Of a DNA stretch of 61,382 bases, positions 1 through 34,258 are shown piece by piece (positions within the stretch are counted from its first letter, which is position 1; every line of letters begins with the position of its first letter). The position numbers were made by a program, and so were the translations under genes. A model generated the notes under the pieces. It had not been told where the DNA came from. It worked only from the letters and a program-made list of their open reading frames with translations, and made no database searches. Source of the stretch: Patescibacteria group bacterium (lineage in GTDB: Bacteria; Patescibacteriota; Minisyncoccia; Phycocordibacterales; PALSA-1337); NCBI GenBank assembly GCA_040388415.1, contig JAZKBV010000002.1:1-61382 (forward strand), read 5' to 3'.

Positions 1-582
<582 letters not shown>

Positions 583-27795: not shown

Positions 27796-28401
27796 TTACA
27801 GATGCGATTCGCGGAGTGCCCTGTTGATATGCTGGTTCATGATAGTGCGCATAGGATTCAATTGCATCAGGTGGGCTGATTCAATCGTATCAGACTCAAT
27901 ATCTGCTCTGAGATCGGGAATGCTTGCCACATAGCCGAGACGATGGAGAATGCGGGTAACGATCAATGATTCGAGGGTTTTGAAGGATTCAGCATCTAAT
28001 TGAGTATTACTGCCAGCACTATCAGAATCGGTGGCCAAAAAATCAAATAATGAATCAAGGGTGACGAATAATTCCGGATGCGGATCTTCTCCTTGGAGTA
28101 AACGGTTAAGGAGAAGTGCCACTCGAGCTACAAGCTCTTTGCTTTGGAATGATAATTTTTCTTGCAATTTAATCTCTTGTGCACTGGTCAGTCGCCAAAA
28201 CTCTTTTCCACGCACGAACGAAAAAACGCCCAGAGAGTAATCCTGGATGAATGGCCTGAGCTTTGATTTTTCGAAACGGATGCCTTGAGCAGTAGCACGG
28301 ATGAGTCCAAGGTCTTTGGTAAATATAGACAACAGCTTCCCTGCTTCACCAGATGGTCGTGAGCTTACGATGAATCCGGGAGTTGTATGGATGGCGTACA
28401 T
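27796..28401 (-). CDS. recO: DNA repair protein RecO
   Basis: 201 aa. N-terminal OB-like GFIVSSRPSGEAGKLLSIFTKDLGLIRATAQGIR. Starts 1 nt after the ileS stop. Confidence 0.75.
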   Translation of the reverse strand: MYAIHTTPGFIVSSRPSGEAGKLLSIFTKDLGLIRATAQGIRFEKSKLRPFIQDYSLGVFSFVRGKEFWRLTSAQEIKLQEKLSFQSKELVARVALLLNRLLQGEDPHPELFVTLDSLFDFLATDSDSAGSNTQLDAESFKTLESLIVTRILHRLGYVASIPDLRADIESDTIESAHLMQLNPMRTIMNQHINRALRESHL

Positions 28402-28402
28402 G

Positions 28403-31400
28403 TTAAGCCTTCAACCCGAGCACATCACCAAAGTTGATGCTTGTGACATTTGTAAGTTTCTTTAACTCATCACCGTACTTCTCAACTATTGAACGCTCTG
28501 CTTCAGTCACAACCAAAGAAGTTTTATCTCCTACAGACAAGCCTTTCTCCTTTCTCATATCCTGTACTTTGCGGAGGAGCTCGCGGAATTCGCCTTCCAT
28601 TTTAAGCTCTGGGGTAATAACTGTATCCAATTCGACAGTGAATGTAGGGTCATTTTGGTCGACACTCTTTTCGAGCACAACTTCTTTGACATTAAGCTCA
28701 TCCATGAGAATAGACTTGAGCTCATCCCAGCGAGGAATGCTATGCTCGCGATGTTTGATAGAAAGCTTCTGTAACGGTTGACGGACATTTATCTTGCTCT
28801 CCGTTCTCTTCATAAGACCTGCAGTAGCAAAAGACTGAACGATCTTCATTCCTGACAAAACATCCTCATCCACCCTTCCTCCAACTGGCCACGATTCAAG
28901 ATGAACACTTTCCCCATCACCACCTACTTCTTGATAAATGAACTCAGCGAAGAAAGGCGTGAACGGTGCCATGATTTTCGCCAATGTAAGAAGAACATAT
29001 TTCGTTGTCGCCAAAGCTGCTTCTTTATCAGCTATATCATCTCCCTTGAAACGGTCACGTGATCGGCGAAGATACCACTGCGATAGATCAGCGATGAATT
29101 CGCGCATCTCGCGGGTAGGCTCGAGGAAAACATATGCGTCCATATTACGCGTCACATTCTCTACAAGCTGATTCAGGCGCGCCAATATCCATTGATCAAT
29201 AATATTCTGTGATTTTCCTAGCTCCTGACTTCTAACTTCTAACTTCTTATCTTCATACGTCTTATAAAATGTCGTTACATTCGCGACTAGATTGAACACC
29301 TTCTTCACAATCTCATCAACAGTCTTTTCTTCGAAGTTCTTCGACTCACCAGGTTGATTGACTGAATACATCCAGAAACGTAATGCATCTGCGCCATACT
29401 TGTCCATCATGTTCCATGGATTGATGACGTTGCCGATAGACTTCGACATTTTCTTCCCCTCCCCGTCGAGGATATGACCGAGACAGATCACATTCTTGTA
29501 TGCTCTGCCTTTGCCCATGAGAACGCCGATGGCGTGAAGTGTATAGAACCAGCCACGAGTCTGATCAATCGCTTCTGAAATAAAGTCAGCTGGATATGCC
29601 AGTTTTTGTTTTGTACCAAATAGTCCTTTCTTCCCTTCAAACGGATAATGATCCTGCGCGAATGGCATGCCACCAGAATCGAACCATACATCCATAACCT
29701 CTTTTGCACGAGTCATCTTGCCGCCACATGAACATGAAAATTTCACTTCATCGATGAATGGCTTATGGAGGTCGAGCTCGTATTCTGAGTTATGTGGCAC
29801 TACTTTCATATTCAACTCGCGTACACCAGCCTTTTCGATGTAATTATTCTTTTCATATTCGGCGGTCTGCTCCCTGTCCCAACCCTGGGCAGCAGCGATG
29901 AGCATCATGGCTGGACTGCCATGAGTAACGATCAGAACGTTCTTGCCGGCATATTTTGATTCAATATCGTACAAGAAATCACCGACGCGAGTTTTCACAT
30001 CCGCATGATTCTCTCCATTTTTTGGATGAACTACGAAGCGACTATCATTGAGCGGGAAAACTTTTAACAGCTGTTCGAGCGTCATGCCATCCCATTCGCC
30101 AAGCTCGATTTCCCTCAGACGATTGTCTGTCACAAATTGTTCGTCGGCCAGACCAAGCGCCTTTTGCACAAGCTGTGCAGTCTCCTGAGTGCGAATGAAT
30201 GGAGAAACGACGATCAGGTCAATCTTCAATTTTTTGATGCCTTCTATAGCTAAAGCTACTTTCTTTTTACCATGCTCGGTCAGATGATTTTCAAGTGTGA
30301 TATCACTGTTCAAAACATCTTTCGCATTGCACTCTGCTTCGCCATGACGCATAACATGATAGGTATTCTTTGCGGGCTGAGCGATGTCCTCGATAGATCC
30401 GACAACTTTTCTCTTGTTACATGTATCGCAATTCCATACTGGCAATGGCGTGCCCCAATAACGTTCGCGTGAGATCGCCCAATCTTTGACATCTTTGAGC
30501 CATTCGCCAAAACGACCATCCTTTATGTACTCAGGCTCCCAATGGATGCCTTCATTTTCTTTTAACAATTTGTCACGCAAATCTGACATGCGAATATACC
30601 ATGAGTCGCGCGCAAAATAGATGAGCGGAGTCTTACAACGCCAACAATGAGGATAGGTATGCTTTATGTTTTCCTGAGCGAAAAATGCTCCATTTTGTTT
30701 CAGATAATTCACAATATCAACATCAAGGGTCGGCTTACCATTTTCATCTTTTTCTTTGACGAATCTACCCGCAAGGAAGTCAGTTCCCTTTTTGAAGGTT
30801 CCGTCGTCATTCACTAAATGATATTTAGGCAGATTGTTCTTTGTGCCGAGCTCAAAGTCGTCCTGACCATACATGGGAGCGATATGCACGATGCCAGTAC
30901 CATCAGCAGTTGTGACAAAATCGCCCGCATATACTTTGAATGCATTTGGCAACTTATCTTTTTCTGCTCCAGTGACTGCGTCATTCAGATAAGGAAAGAG
31001 GGGCTCGTAGGTGAGGCCGACGAGGTCAGAGCCTTTGATGGTTACAAGTATTTCATGCTGTGTCTCTTTCAATGAAGACAATCGTTCTTTGGCTAGAATA
31101 AGGATGTCGTTGCTGACCTTAACCTTCACATACTCAATATCCTTCCCTACCGCCAAAGCGACGTTGCCCGGGAGAGTCCAAGGCGTCGTTGTCCATGCAA
31201 GAATATAAGTATCTTTTTGTCCTATTACTTTAAATTTCACATAAAGTGAAAGATCCTTCACCTCCTGATAGCCTTGCGCCAACTCATGTGACGAAAGACC
31301 GGTACCACAGCGCGGACACCATGGAACAATCTTATAGTCTTTATAGAGCAAACCTTTCTCATCGACAGTTTTGATGATATTCCAAACTGACTCGATATAC

Positions 31401-31873
31401 TGAGGCTTGTAGGTAATATAGGGATTTTTGAGATCAACCCAGTATCCCATACGGTTGGTGAAATCTTCCCATTCGTGTACATAGGTCCAGACGCTGTCCT
31501 TACATTTTTGATTGAATGCAGCGATGCCATACGATTCGATCTCTTTCTTTGATTTGAGACCAAGCTCTTTTTCTACTTGAAGCTCAACAGGCAGACCGTG
31601 CGTATCCCAACCTCCCTTTCGGCGGACGTGGAATCCTTGCATGGTCTTGTAGCGAGGGATGGCATCCTTGAATGCGCGTGCTTCGAGGTGGTGTATACCG
31701 GGACGACCGTTGGCAGTTGGCGGACCTTCAAAAAAAACGAACTCCCCTTTTGGCGACTCTTTATCAAGAGACTTCTGAAACACATCTTTCTCTTTCCAAA
31801 ATGCCAAAACATTCTCCTCACGAAGAGCGTGGGGAGATTTAACTTTAAGGGCGTCGGGTGATTCTTGGGACAT
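28403..31873 (-). CDS. ileS: isoleucyl-tRNA synthetase with nested histidine-phosphatase domain
   Basis: 1156 aa with PPTANGRPGIHHL (HIGH region), the CP1 editing region, Zn knuckles (WCPRCGT, HCWRCKT, CDTC, CSCGG), DVWFDSG and GKKMSKS. The insert is described separately. Confidence 0.95.
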   Translation of the reverse strand: MSQESPDALKVKSPHALREENVLAFWKEKDVFQKSLDKESPKGEFVFFEGPPTANGRPGIHHLEARAFKDAIPRYKTMQGFHVRRKGGWDTHGLPVELQVEKELGLKSKKEIESYGIAAFNQKCKDSVWTYVHEWEDFTNRMGYWVDLKNPYITYKPQYIESVWNIIKTVDEKGLLYKDYKIVPWCPRCGTGLSSHELAQGYQEVKDLSLYVKFKVIGQKDTYILAWTTTPWTLPGNVALAVGKDIEYVKVKVSNDILILAKERLSSLKETQHEILVTIKGSDLVGLTYEPLFPYLNDAVTGAEKDKLPNAFKVYAGDFVTTADGTGIVHIAPMYGQDDFELGTKNNLPKYHLVNDDGTFKKGTDFLAGRFVKEKDENGKPTLDVDIVNYLKQNGAFFAQENIKHTYPHCWRCKTPLIYFARDSWYIRMSDLRDKLLKENEGIHWEPEYIKDGRFGEWLKDVKDWAISRERYWGTPLPVWNCDTCNKRKVVGSIEDIAQPAKNTYHVMRHGEAECNAKDVLNSDITLENHLTEHGKKKVALAIEGIKKLKIDLIVVSPFIRTQETAQLVQKALGLADEQFVTDNRLREIELGEWDGMTLEQLLKVFPLNDSRFVVHPKNGENHADVKTRVGDFLYDIESKYAGKNVLIVTHGSPAMMLIAAAQGWDREQTAEYEKNNYIEKAGVRELNMKVVPHNSEYELDLHKPFIDEVKFSCSCGGKMTRAKEVMDVWFDSGGMPFAQDHYPFEGKKGLFGTKQKLAYPADFISEAIDQTRGWFYTLHAIGVLMGKGRAYKNVICLGHILDGEGKKMSKSIGNVINPWNMMDKYGADALRFWMYSVNQPGESKNFEEKTVDEIVKKVFNLVANVTTFYKTYEDKKLEVRSQELGKSQNIIDQWILARLNQLVENVTRNMDAYVFLEPTREMREFIADLSQWYLRRSRDRFKGDDIADKEAALATTKYVLLTLAKIMAPFTPFFAEFIYQEVGGDGESVHLESWPVGGRVDEDVLSGMKIVQSFATAGLMKRTESKINVRQPLQKLSIKHREHSIPRWDELKSILMDELNVKEVVLEKSVDQNDPTFTVELDTVITPELKMEGEFRELLRKVQDMRKEKGLSVGDKTSLVVTEAERSIVEKYGDELKKLTNVTSINFGDVLGLKA
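29780..30367 (-). other. in-frame histidine-phosphatase (PGAM/His_Phos_1-like) domain inserted in IleRS (aa ~503-698)
   Basis: Motifs YHVMRHGEAECN (RHG codons at ~30341-30349), SPFIRTQETA, REIELGEWDG and LIVTHGSP. Flanked by IleRS blocks PLPVWNCDTCNKRKVVGS and DLHKPFIDEVKFSCSCGG. Confidence 0.8.
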
Positions 31874-31903: not shown

Positions 31904-32491
31904 TTATTTCAATCTCATACTCTCTATCTTTTCTATGAGCAGAGGATGTTTAATATCTTTAATGGCATAATCGGCAAACTCTTTAAACAAAGGCTTCCCT
32001 GAAGATTTTTCATATTCATACGCTTTTTCAATTGCTTGATACTTATCCAATTGTCTTGCAAGATCGGCAACTCTATCATCAGATAATTCGAAGCGGAGCC
32101 ACAGATCAAATATTACACTACCCTCTACACCCAAACTTTCTGTAATCTTTGCCATCGCATCACGTTCACTTGTAAATTTTTCCTCTTTTAGTTTTTTACG
32201 CTCTACTGGATCACTTGTTATGGTCACCTTATCACCATCGATTGCTTCAGCCCAGTCATGGATTTCCAATATATCAAGAAGGTCTTGTTTCTCATCAGAC
32301 GAAAATTCTGACAATAAATCAGAAACAGCTGGCGCCAGAGCCTTGAGGGCCAGTGTATGCTCCTGCACAGTCTCTGGGTTTTCTATACCTCTTCTAACCC
32401 AACCCGTTCGCGGTATTTCAGCTAATTTTGACCACACTTCCGGTACAAGATGTGCGAATTTTAATTCCGAAGAATTTTTGATTGATTCCAT
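31904..32491 (-). CDS. HD-domain hydrolase (YfbR-like 5'-deoxynucleotidase family)
   Basis: 195 aa with ENPETVQEHTLAL ... LEIHDWAEAIDGD (H...HD...D pattern). Confidence 0.8.
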   Translation of the reverse strand: MESIKNSSELKFAHLVPEVWSKLAEIPRTGWVRRGIENPETVQEHTLALKALAPAVSDLLSEFSSDEKQDLLDILEIHDWAEAIDGDKVTITSDPVERKKLKEEKFTSERDAMAKITESLGVEGSVIFDLWLRFELSDDRVADLARQLDKYQAIEKAYEYEKSSGKPLFKEFADYAIKDIKHPLLIEKIESMRLK

Positions 32492-32503
32492 AATAGATTT
32501 TAC

Positions 32504-34258
32504 TTACATCCTCTTCGGAATTTTGATACCGAGAATGTGGAGACCTTCACTCATCACCTCAACAAAGCTTTTGGTGAGGAGCACGCGATACGGCGACAAC
32601 GGTTCATTCACATCAACGATCGTATTGCTTGCATAAAAACTATTGAATGCCCCCGCAAGATTGATGAGATAGTTCGCAACAAGCTGTGGCGCATATTCTG
32701 CTGACGCTCGCTCGATGATATCTGGGAATCTCACAATGAGCTTTTCGAGCAGGCCAACCTTTTCTGGCAAAACTACTTTTGACTGATTGATCAATGTTCG
32801 AATCTCCCCTTCTTTACCCAAATCGAGCTCGCCTTTCGCTTTCTCGATAATAGAATTTGCGCGAACAACAGAATACTGGAGATACGGGCCCGAATCACCT
32901 TCAAATGAAATAGACTTCGCTGAATCAAAGATGACATCACTACCGACAGCCTGACGGAGGATGGTGTATTTGATAGCAGCGATAGCGATGATATCTGATA
33001 CTTCTTCAGCATCTTCAGGGGCGAACTTACGGTCAACAATTCTTTCTATAACCATTTTCTTCATATCATCGATGAGCGTCTCGGCGGTGATGACGTTGCC
33101 TGTGCGTGAAGACATTTTGCCTGAGGCAAAGCGCAACATGCCATGGCCAATGTGCTTTGTTTTCTTTCCGACATTTTCATCGATCAGCGTGAGCGCCTTG
33201 GTGATGACTTTGAAATATTCATTCTGCTCACTCGCTGTCACCACGATCGACATATCTGTTTCAGGATATTTTTTGAACTTTGTTACATTCAACCCCATCT
33301 CCTTTGCTTCATAGGTTGGCAGGCCATGCGAGTTGATGAACACACGCGTATGCAGACCATGATCTTCGCCTTTAAAAACTATAGCCCCATCGCTTTCAGC
33401 GAAAACATCTTTCTTTAAAAACATTTTGACGATATCAAGACCGACAGGGGCCATCTCGCTTTCATATATATATCCATCAAAATGCGTGCCGAGACGCTTA
33501 TAGAGCAATTCAAAATGTTCCAAGCTCCAGTTTCTCCCCTTTTCATAGAGAGTATTGATGGCTGGACTCGACTTCTCGTAGAGTATTCTGTTCAATGAAT
33601 CGATATCATCTTTTACTGTGATGCCGGCTCCACTCAATTCATCTGACTCATAGAGGCGCGTACCTTCGACATACATTTTGCCAAGGAATGCTGTTTTCTC
33701 TTGGATCGGTGTGGAGTCAGCAGGTATTTCGCTCTCATGGCGCTTCATAGCCCAGATAGACTTGGCGATGTGGAGACCGATATCAGACGGGTAACAGAGA
33801 CGCGTGACTTTGGCACCCGACGCTTCAATCAAACGTGATAGTGACTCGCCGATAGCATTCGACATGAGATGACCGATATGGAATGCCTTGAAGATATTCG
33901 GATCTGTATACTCGATAAGTATATTTTTATTTCCGTCTTTTTCTCTTTTGGTTTTTGTATCTTGGTTATTGATTATTGATTCAGCGAACACACTATCCTT
34001 CACTTTAAAGTTAATAAAACCTGGTCCAGCTACACTGACAGATTCGATGCTTTGAGGCATATCTTTTTTGAATTCTTCAACTATCCTTTCGGCGAGCATT
34101 TTTGGGGCCATCTTGAGCACCTTGGCATGAGCCATAGCGATATTGGTCGAATAGTCGCCATGTTCTGGATTTTCTGGATACTCCAAAGCAAAAAAATCGG
34201 CAGAAATACCAATATTTTTAGCCGTTTTGACGAGATGGTCTATAAGCTCTGATTTCAT
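32504..34258 (-). CDS. argS: arginyl-tRNA synthetase
   Basis: 584 aa with NIFKAFHIGHLMSNAIG (HIGH), SSRTGNVIT (MSK-like), and a DALR anticodon-binding C-terminus ending ...GIKIPKRM. Confidence 0.95.
   Translation of the reverse strand: MKSELIDHLVKTAKNIGISADFFALEYPENPEHGDYSTNIAMAHAKVLKMAPKMLAERIVEEFKKDMPQSIESVSVAGPGFINFKVKDSVFAESIINNQDTKTKREKDGNKNILIEYTDPNIFKAFHIGHLMSNAIGESLSRLIEASGAKVTRLCYPSDIGLHIAKSIWAMKRHESEIPADSTPIQEKTAFLGKMYVEGTRLYESDELSGAGITVKDDIDSLNRILYEKSSPAINTLYEKGRNWSLEHFELLYKRLGTHFDGYIYESEMAPVGLDIVKMFLKKDVFAESDGAIVFKGEDHGLHTRVFINSHGLPTYEAKEMGLNVTKFKKYPETDMSIVVTASEQNEYFKVITKALTLIDENVGKKTKHIGHGMLRFASGKMSSRTGNVITAETLIDDMKKMVIERIVDRKFAPEDAEEVSDIIAIAAIKYTILRQAVGSDVIFDSAKSISFEGDSGPYLQYSVVRANSIIEKAKGELDLGKEGEIRTLINQSKVVLPEKVGLLEKLIVRFPDIIERASAEYAPQLVANYLINLAGAFNSFYASNTIVDVNEPLSPYRVLLTKSFVEVMSEGLHILGIKIPKRM

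Follow-up and report, generated by a model that had tools for sequence, protein, structure and literature searches.

Introduction

Aminoacyl-tRNA synthetases are among the best-studied enzymes. Those of class Ia commonly carry non-enzymatic insertions in their connective-peptide region and, to our knowledge, the insertions known from bacterial synthetases are editing or RNA-binding modules, not unrelated catalytic domains. The closest described relatives of the enzyme considered here are the type-2 isoleucyl-tRNA synthetases (IleRS2) of Priestia megaterium (8C8U/8C8V/8C8W) and Thermus thermophilus (1ILE). Here we describe the ileS gene in a 61,382-nt stretch of DNA from a Patescibacteria group bacterium (contig JAZKBV010000002.1 of assembly GCA_040388415.1, positions 1-61,382, forward strand; the whole stretch is referred to as the window). 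Its product shares with these enzymes the editing domain, the Cys4 knuckle, the KMSKS motif and the type-2 C-terminal domains, but it has ~190 extra residues, belonging to a phosphatase domain, where they have ~10. The host is basically a normal IleRS2 and the guest a normal branch-1 histidine phosphatase; the new part is their combination, which is present in the databases but apparently not yet described. In agreement with the original prediction for this DNA, which knew of no such architecture, searches of the full-text literature found no paper describing a phosphatase nested in IleRS, and a 2026 preprint on IleRS domain evolution mentions neither a phosphatase nor Patescibacteria.

Results

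The host enzyme

The gene encodes a protein of 1156 aa without interruption, and the features of the host to which we refer are as follows.

28403..31873, minus strand: ileS, type-2 isoleucyl-tRNA synthetase, host of the insert (open reading frame (ORF); TIGR00392; Foldseek)
31688..31699, minus strand: GIHH, the swapped (GXHH) form of the class I HIGH motif, aa 59-62 (sequence)
29438..29452, minus strand: KMSKS loop (sequence)

The protein scores 930.8 bits against the NCBIfam model TIGR00392 (ileS), well above the equivalog cutoff of 621.4, and a PDB sequence search aligns it colinearly with 8C8W along its entire length (E=3.8e-245), so that the uninterrupted, IleRS-like reading frame seen at the outset is confirmed by ORF, profile and structure matches alike. 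For the full-length model, the best Foldseek match is P. megaterium IleRS2 (8C8V, target-normalised TM-score (TMt) 0.81), and 1ILE matches with TMt 0.91. Pfam splits the tRNA-synt_1 match around a His_Phos_1 match, and places Anticodon_1 and DUF5915 at the C-terminus. We assigned an enzyme to IleRS2 if it was nearest to IleRS2 structures, had the type-2 C-terminal organisation and lacked a C-terminal zinc-binding domain; the best PDB matches of the window protein are the P. megaterium enzyme (PmIleRS2) and 1ILE, and its C-terminal organisation is that of type 2 (Anticodon_1 plus DUF5915).

The class I signatures GIHH (a HIGH variant) and KMSKS (residue 808) are present, as is DVWFDS (residue 728). 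The blocks WTTTPWTLPGN and DGTGIVH, which we take to be editing-domain blocks of IleRS, are also present, and are conserved in 114 relatives. Because the first and third positions of HXGH are swapped (G/A-X-H-H), the window IleRS falls in the GXHH subclass, a motif reported to confer mupirocin hyper-resistance in IleRS2 (PMC10485003). Among 80 related loci that bear the phosphatase (the best 80 of 376 matching genomes, on which all counts of related loci in this manuscript rest), GIHH occurs in 27 and HYGH in 34, and so both forms coexist with the insert. The acquired mupirocin-resistance enzymes MupA and MupB were rejected as identities for the window protein (822 and 785 bits, respectively, against a cutoff of 1900), as was the GNAT-containing form ileS_w_GNAT (NF040702; 313 bits against 1999), whose GNAT match is absent from the window protein.

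Size, site and borders of the insert

In the alignment, the insert comprises ~200 residues (aa ~500-699), compared with ~10 in solved IleRS2 structures. Its position and anchors are:

29780..30367, minus strand: inserted segment, aa 503-698 (NTYHVMRHGE...PHNSEY), histidine-phosphatase domain plus linkers (translation; gap against 1ILE, 8C8W and the related locus L082)
30419..30430, minus strand: first zinc-knuckle cysteine pair, C482-D-T-C485, the N-terminal anchor of the insert (C482 in 151 and C485 in 147 of 159 homologues; aligns with CxxC of 1ILE)
29726..29734, minus strand: second cysteine pair, C714-S-C716, the C-terminal anchor of the insert (151/159 and 150/159; aligns with C-x-C of 1ILE)

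At the insert position 1ILE has only residues 479-487, the stretch in 8C8W is similarly short, and the insert-less IleRS of a related bacterium of the candidate phyla radiation (CPR; locus L082) spans the same gap with ~12 residues. These values bear out the extra segment of ~195 aa (aa ~503-698) that had been recognised from the sequence, and they also supply the normal loop size in this IleRS clade, on which that claim had been made to depend. No phosphatase insert was found in any solved IleRS structure in the Foldseek comparison.

A Cys4 zinc knuckle brackets the insert, with the pair C482/C485 on one side and C714/C716 on the other. The second half of the core (catalytic HUP) starts at V513 of PmIleRS2, based on the domain limits given in PMC10485003, which corresponds to V726 of the window protein, ~26 residues after the insert. 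Because the second half of the core starts only at V726, the alignment places the insert at the C-terminal end of the connective-peptide region, outside of the Rossmann/HUP core proper. The original prediction had put it within the Rossmann fold of the catalytic core, and in this respect has to be corrected, the site being the Cys4 zinc knuckle of the connective-peptide region. In the CP1-CP3 nomenclature for this region (PMC11685878), we infer that the site belongs to “CP3”.

The inserted domain is a histidine phosphatase

The insert matches PF00300 (His_Phos_1) at aa 507-674, with E=4.1e-33 in the context of the whole protein (115 bits, cutoff 21.7) and E=1.1e-34 for the excised segment 29780-30367. 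The match, at 115-120 bits, covers positions 3-170 of the 194 in the profile, and this places the domain in branch 1 of the superfamily. Its core and catalytic residues are listed here, with conservation taken from a MAFFT alignment of 159 full-length homologues.

29849..30361, minus strand: His_Phos_1 core, aa 505-675 (PF00300; predicted local distance difference test score (pLDDT) 94-98; Foldseek TM 0.70-0.78)
30344..30349, minus strand: R509-H510 of the RHG motif (509-511), H510 being the predicted phospho-accepting nucleophile (both 159/159)
30191..30193, minus strand: R561, second phosphate-pocket arginine, in SPFIRTQET (158/159)
30110..30112, minus strand: E588, predicted general acid/base (155 E and 3 D of 159)
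29921..29923, minus strand: H651, second catalytic histidine, in VTHGSP (159/159)

The motif set read from the sequence (RHG, R561, E588 and H651) is therefore complete, and N516 is additionally kept in 149 of the homologues. Over the same alignment, the insert is on average 44% identical to that of the window (minimum 29%), compared with 68% and 65% for the two IleRS parts. The closest relative (JAQTPC010000003.1) has an 85% identical insert, and the comparison with it gives proportions of nonsynonymous and synonymous differences of pN=0.084 and pS=0.77; the latter is saturated, and for this reason we report only pN and pS and no dN/dS ratio. These comparisons indicate that both the IleRS and the phosphatase parts are under purifying selection.

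The AlphaFold2 model of the full-length protein has a pLDDT of 88.7 and a predicted TM-score (pTM) of 0.79, with the insert as its most confident part (94-98). Modelled alone, the insert again gives a compact lobe (pLDDT 94.3); whether it folds as a separate lobe was a check suggested with the original prediction. The model and its Foldseek matches have the alpha/beta fold of branch-1 histidine phosphatases, and the matches (TM 0.70-0.78) are PspA (4IJ5/4IJ6), GpgP (4QIH), a riboflavin-pathway phosphatase (9MMH), PhoE (1H2E) and CobC (6NRU). The closest known relatives at the sequence level are also metabolite phosphatases. The domain is acidic (isoelectric point 5.6 in the window, median 6.25 among homologues), and therefore gives no hint of an RNA-binding surface.

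The original prediction had called the domain a histidine phosphatase of PGAM (phosphoglycerate mutase) type. The superfamily assignment stands, as branch 1 (PF00300), but the PGAM label is, by profile scores, too specific for what is identified as a phosphatase-type member. Cofactor-dependent phosphoglycerate mutase (dPGM) models score below their equivalog cutoffs (archaeal dPGM NF038349, 85 bits against 225; TIGR01258, 19 against 81.7; NF002339, 40 against 316), the domain being short and phosphatase-like. CobC (TIGR03162, 88 against 162.9), PspA (NF045917, 74 against 350) and SixA (TIGR00249, 42 against 74.5) were rejected on the same basis.

Because the catalytic set is kept in 155-159 of the 159 homologues despite a mean identity of only ~44%, the insert is probably an active phosphatase module as well as an intact one. 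This is as had been proposed, and the pN and pS values and the model confidence point the same way. It might instead be supposed that the fold is retained only as a structural, tRNA-binding or allosteric sensor module (i.e., a pseudo-enzyme), for which the non-enzymatic modules commonly inserted in class Ia synthetases would be a precedent. Pseudo-enzymes, however, normally lose their catalytic residues, and the retention seen here extends down to homologues with 29% identity and to the second copies described below, so that we consider a purely non-catalytic role very improbable. With regard to substrates, branch-1 histidine phosphatases act on phosphomonoesters, and cleavage of an Ap4A-type pyrophosphate, one of the roles suggested originally, would for this reason be chemically unlikely. 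Profile, motifs and predicted fold thus identify the segment as a branch-1 histidine phosphatase that is complete and belongs to the compact PhoE/PspA/GpgP type, located in the housekeeping IleRS2 of a Paceibacteria-type bacterium.

Distribution and authenticity

The nested phosphatase is a clade-wide feature, and is not peculiar to the window genome. The best 120 homologues of the full protein, from NCBI, JGI, ENA and Logan assemblies, are 57-86% identical to it and 1064-1242 aa in length, and all 120 contain PF00300. Their source organisms are named Paceibacterota, Parcubacteria, Taylorbacteria or Patescibacteria, and the proteins themselves “class I tRNA ligase family protein” or “isoleucyl-tRNA synthetase”. 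When the insert and its flanks were used as query in an exhaustive search, at least 115 clusters (50% identity) were obtained at E<=1e-30, mostly of IleRS size and matching at approximately aa 450-750. In a scan of one genome per GTDB species, at least 376 species-level genomes encode a relative; this number is a lower bound because the scan used a single peptide pattern, which was built from six closer sequences.

In the related loci, the phosphatase lies inside ileS in 80 of the 80 inspected, with an ORF that is either of IleRS length or cut by the contig end. All 80 are from Patescibacteria (Paceibacterota, Taylor-, Nomura-, Kaiser- and Campbellbacteria, and RAAC4_OD1_1), and the insert is also carried by a Peregrinibacteria protein (KKP39778.1). 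The search for the same insert in IleRS of CPR and metagenome-assembled genomes, suggested with the original prediction, thus yielded PF00300 in every one of the 120 top homologues and matches in 376 GTDB species.

A chimeric assembly, in which a mis-join had put a phosphatase gene inside ileS, had been raised as a possible explanation. It is excluded by the same architecture in 120/120 homologues and 80/80 loci. The reading frame is continuous and the GC content flat across the insert borders (0.43-0.47), and hundreds of assemblies made independently share the architecture, among them genomes that are complete or nearly so (e.g., AWSN01000001 and OY969557.1); we give this explanation next to no credence.

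Other layouts of the IleRS-phosphatase pairing

Phosphatase domains of this family occur at several positions in IleRS, which we designate as follows.

Site A: between the zinc-knuckle cysteine pairs (window protein)
Site A': just after the second cysteine pair (P0247)
Site B: loop between DxWFxSG...MPYA and FPADFI (P0267, P0247)
Site C: loop between the stem-contact helix and the anticodon-binding domain (P0267, P0242)
Tandem: two copies at site A (P0260)

Four proteins, P0242, P0267 (L081:6001-10260), P0247 and P0260, contain two intact histidine-phosphatase domains each, either in different loops or in tandem. None of the variant domains, whether at site A, A', B or C, lacks any part of the catalytic set, and this includes the second copies. 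P0242 is without the zinc-knuckle cysteines at site A. The form with domains at sites B and C is represented by six cluster members of identical length, one of which is on a 1.06-Mb contig.

The phosphatase also occurs as a separate gene. P0243 is a free-standing phosphatase of 189 aa, encoded between argS and an insert-less ileS (931 aa) with gaps of 1-3 nt; it is 39% identical to the window insert and has the same catalytic set. A profile search assigned at least 120 clusters to this free-standing sister family of 188-aa phosphatases (45-82% identical, PF00300 only), from Patescibacteria including Portnoy- and Staskawiczbacteria. In the divergent members whose context was examined (8/8), the gene lies between argS and an insert-less ileS (927-981 aa), and in seven of the eight it abuts or overlaps ileS, with junctions between 7 nt of overlap and a gap of 4 nt. 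The remaining member has a reverse-transcriptase/bAvd cassette inserted between the free phosphatase gene and ileS. Genes resembling those of diversity-generating retroelements (bAvd, RVT_1) were seen at L100:5168-7555, between the free phosphatase and ileS, and at L096:9216-9567, where bAvd is downstream of ileS. Based on these sequence comparisons, the association of IleRS with the phosphatase is ancient and recurrent in Patescibacteria.

Three other free phosphatases (P0245, P0001 and P0251) were set aside as evidence on context, their contigs being too short or the context unrelated; of these, the distant P0251 lies outside of the argS-ileS context. P0001 (L086:3-647), also distant, has cysteine pairs at both ends (HCKCG...CCVNCGDRC) and resembles a stand-alone version of the zinc-knuckle-framed domain. 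Its second catalytic His is replaced by S and its Glu by D, and it starts at a contig edge and may be incomplete.

The gene neighbourhood of ileS

The neighbours of ileS in the window are:

32504..34258, minus strand: argS, conserved upstream neighbour (ORF; homologue upstream of ileS in 50/80 loci)
31904..32491, minus strand: HD_3 phosphohydrolase gene in the argS-ileS slot (PF13023, E=9.6e-17)
27796..28401, minus strand: recO, conserved downstream neighbour, with a 1-nt gap to ileS (RecO_N; present in 66/80 loci)

Since the argS-ileS-recO synteny is conserved, the window gene is the housekeeping ileS. The HD_3 gene occupies the slot that, in other lineages, contains the free-standing phosphatase. 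Homologues of it are absent from all 80 related loci, the closest relative included, and it shows only weak similarity to the HD domain fused to IleRS in L054 and L069 (see below); it was therefore rejected as a conserved partner of ileS. In ten loci with a nested phosphatase (L003, L014, L025, L033, L034, L042, L044, L064, L067 and L072), the slot contains unrelated ORFs of 150-250 aa, of which one has a NYN domain and the rest no Pfam match, and only those of L003 and L067 are alike. These slot genes were likewise rejected as a single family, being heterogeneous and mostly without a Pfam match. The argS-ileS slot appears to be a hotspot for accessory genes.

Elsewhere in the window, the 5' end of a bacterial 23S rRNA gene occupies positions 1-580 (minus strand) and runs off the window start, and four tRNA genes (His-GTG, Leu-GAG, Val-TAC and Arg-TCT) lie at 53.6-59.5 kb.

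Other guest domains in IleRS of the CPR

Two Nomurabacteria-type IleRS (L054:3360-7535 and L069:3468-7568; 1392 and 1367 aa in total) have, in addition to the nested phosphatase, a C-terminal HD domain of ~200 aa. A third protein, P0137 (1066 aa, on an 11-kb JGI contig), contains an IS200-like Y1 transposase domain in the editing/CP1 region (aa 340-461), a histidine phosphatase (680-854) and, after DCWFES, a GNAT acetyltransferase (935-1063).

The HD domains bear on the possibility that the phosphatase acts as a repair or guard enzyme on a macromolecule, either clearing the tRNA(Ile) 3' end of phosphate or pyrophosphate, for instance after attack by a toxin, or dephosphorylating IleRS itself where, for instance, a Hip-type kinase has modified the KMSKS serine. 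Pyrophosphorylation of tRNA 3' ends by RelA/SpoT-like toxins is undone by HD hydrolases, and in GluRS and TrpRS the KMSKS-loop serine is phosphorylated by the kinases HipA and HipT. HD-type phosphohydrolases are tied to ileS both as the C-terminal fusions in L054 and L069 and as the neighbouring gene in the window, the four insertion sites all fall within the second half of the catalytic domain, some before and some after the KMSKS loop, and protein phosphatases such as SixA belong to the superfamily, although the SixA match is weak (42 bits). However, the closest structural relatives are small-molecule enzymes, and not SixA, Sts or PGAM5, and the acidic domain is without a basic RNA-binding extension. 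Moreover, no kinase or toxin gene was seen beside ileS in the window or in related loci, and the HD_3 neighbour in the window is not conserved. We regard a repair or guard role as distinctly unlikely; judged by the charge of the domain and by its structural neighbours, both it and the non-catalytic role are the less likely readings.

Discussion

We favour, at roughly an even chance, a bifunctional IleRS with a dedicated phosphomonoesterase partner. The IleRS part would charge and proofread tRNA(Ile) as usual. The zinc site would hold both ends of the inserted domain together, and the IleRS fold would therefore be left undisturbed. The phosphatase lobe would hydrolyse a phosphomonoester by way of a phospho-H510 intermediate, which is the standard chemistry of the family, with R509, R561 and H651 binding the phosphate and E588 serving as proton donor to the leaving group. 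The substrate would most likely be a small soluble phosphomonoester; a small molecule is favoured over RNA by the acidity of the domain and by its structural neighbours, which are phosphatases of metabolites. The phosphatase would be docked near the second half of the catalytic domain, as a partner of IleRS rather than a random passenger. We prefer this because it has been captured at four loops of the same enzyme, sometimes twice, because none is seen in the equally adjacent argS, and because the separate gene is translationally coupled to ileS.

The main rival to a dedicated partner is that an ordinary metabolic phosphatase, with a phosphoglycerate-, phosphoserine- or nucleotide-type substrate, stood beside ileS and was captured into permissive surface loops. 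Nesting would then secure only co-expression in a streamlined genome, and the activity would be unrelated to aminoacylation. This is possible, if in our view doubtful. In its favour, all of the nearest structures are those of metabolite phosphatases, the acidic domain is self-contained, and the operon mixes unrelated functions such as recO. Gene fusion is also plausible given the highly reduced metabolism of Parcubacteria (PMC4508563). It is less easily reconciled with the presence of the same family at four different IleRS loops, and in double copies, with catalysis apparently intact throughout; with the fact that, in the loci inspected, argS never contains the phosphatase; and with the overlapping or abutting start and stop codons that free-standing members keep with ileS across lineages that are only 45-62% identical.

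Several observations weigh against a dedicated partner, and some of them favour simple capture. The argS-ileS slot is variable, with unrelated genes, and the same gene string includes recO, which has no link to IleRS, so that adjacency alone is weak evidence of coupling. A neighbouring ancestral gene could, through proximity alone, have been captured repeatedly into ileS. GNAT, HD and IS200-like transposase domains also occur in CPR IleRS, which may simply tolerate insertions. The insert is below every NCBIfam equivalog cutoff, and these models give no substrate assignment. Finally, neighbour-joining trees of the phosphatase domains and of IleRS, aimed at distinguishing fusion from fission and independent captures from intragenic moves, are star-like, with the free-standing clade recovered in 20 of 50 bootstrap replicates.

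A stronger form of coupling, which we put forward tentatively and think unlikely, would make the phosphatase an accessory activity of IleRS, built in or encoded in its operon, that acts in cis on the reaction partners of the synthetase itself. It might, for example, free the tRNA(Ile) 3' end of a phosphate or pyrophosphate that blocks it; alternatively, it might erase a kinase-toxin mark on the KMSKS loop or dispose of a phosphorylated by-product at the active site. Action in cis would mean a previously unknown quality control or self-defence joined to a tRNA synthetase and conserved in much of the Patescibacteria.

Across hundreds of species of a major uncultivated radiation, the link between IleRS and an intact phosphatase takes three forms, namely nesting at several sites, duplication and a translationally coupled neighbouring gene, and this should be of interest to both the synthetase and the CPR fields. 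Coupling of the two activities would mean that ultra-small symbiotic bacteria have a new accessory step in the charging of tRNA or a means of defending their translation apparatus; without coupling, this is still a clear natural case of repeated domain insertion into an essential enzyme. The host enzyme additionally bears the GXHH motif linked to mupirocin hyper-resistance. For metabolic reconstructions there is a practical warning, in that an IleRS gene may be scored as a “phosphoglycerate mutase/PhoE” match.

Comparison with known systems

Compared with PspA, GpgP (Rv2419c), HFP, PhoE and CobC, the insert has the same fold, the same catalytic residues and a similar size (170-200 aa), but it is only 22-28% identical to them and is nested in another enzyme, whereas they are free-standing. 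The best NCBIfam match of the insert is the bifunctional RNase H/acid phosphatase (NF005567, Rv2228c type; 90 bits, cutoff 326), which likewise joins a CobC-like histidine phosphatase to a nucleic-acid enzyme, but does so by end-to-end fusion to RNase H. An IleRS with an extra enzyme domain is already recognised in NF040702 ([quoted passage not shown]), although its guest differs from that of the window; NCBIfam has no model named for IleRS with a phosphatase domain. The nearest parallel in gene context is the free-standing P0243 family, whose annotation goes no further than “histidine phosphatase family protein” or “PhoE”. It shares the argS-ileS-recO neighbourhood with the window, and differs in that the phosphatase is a separate gene of 184-191 aa upstream of an insert-less ileS rather than a domain nested within it.

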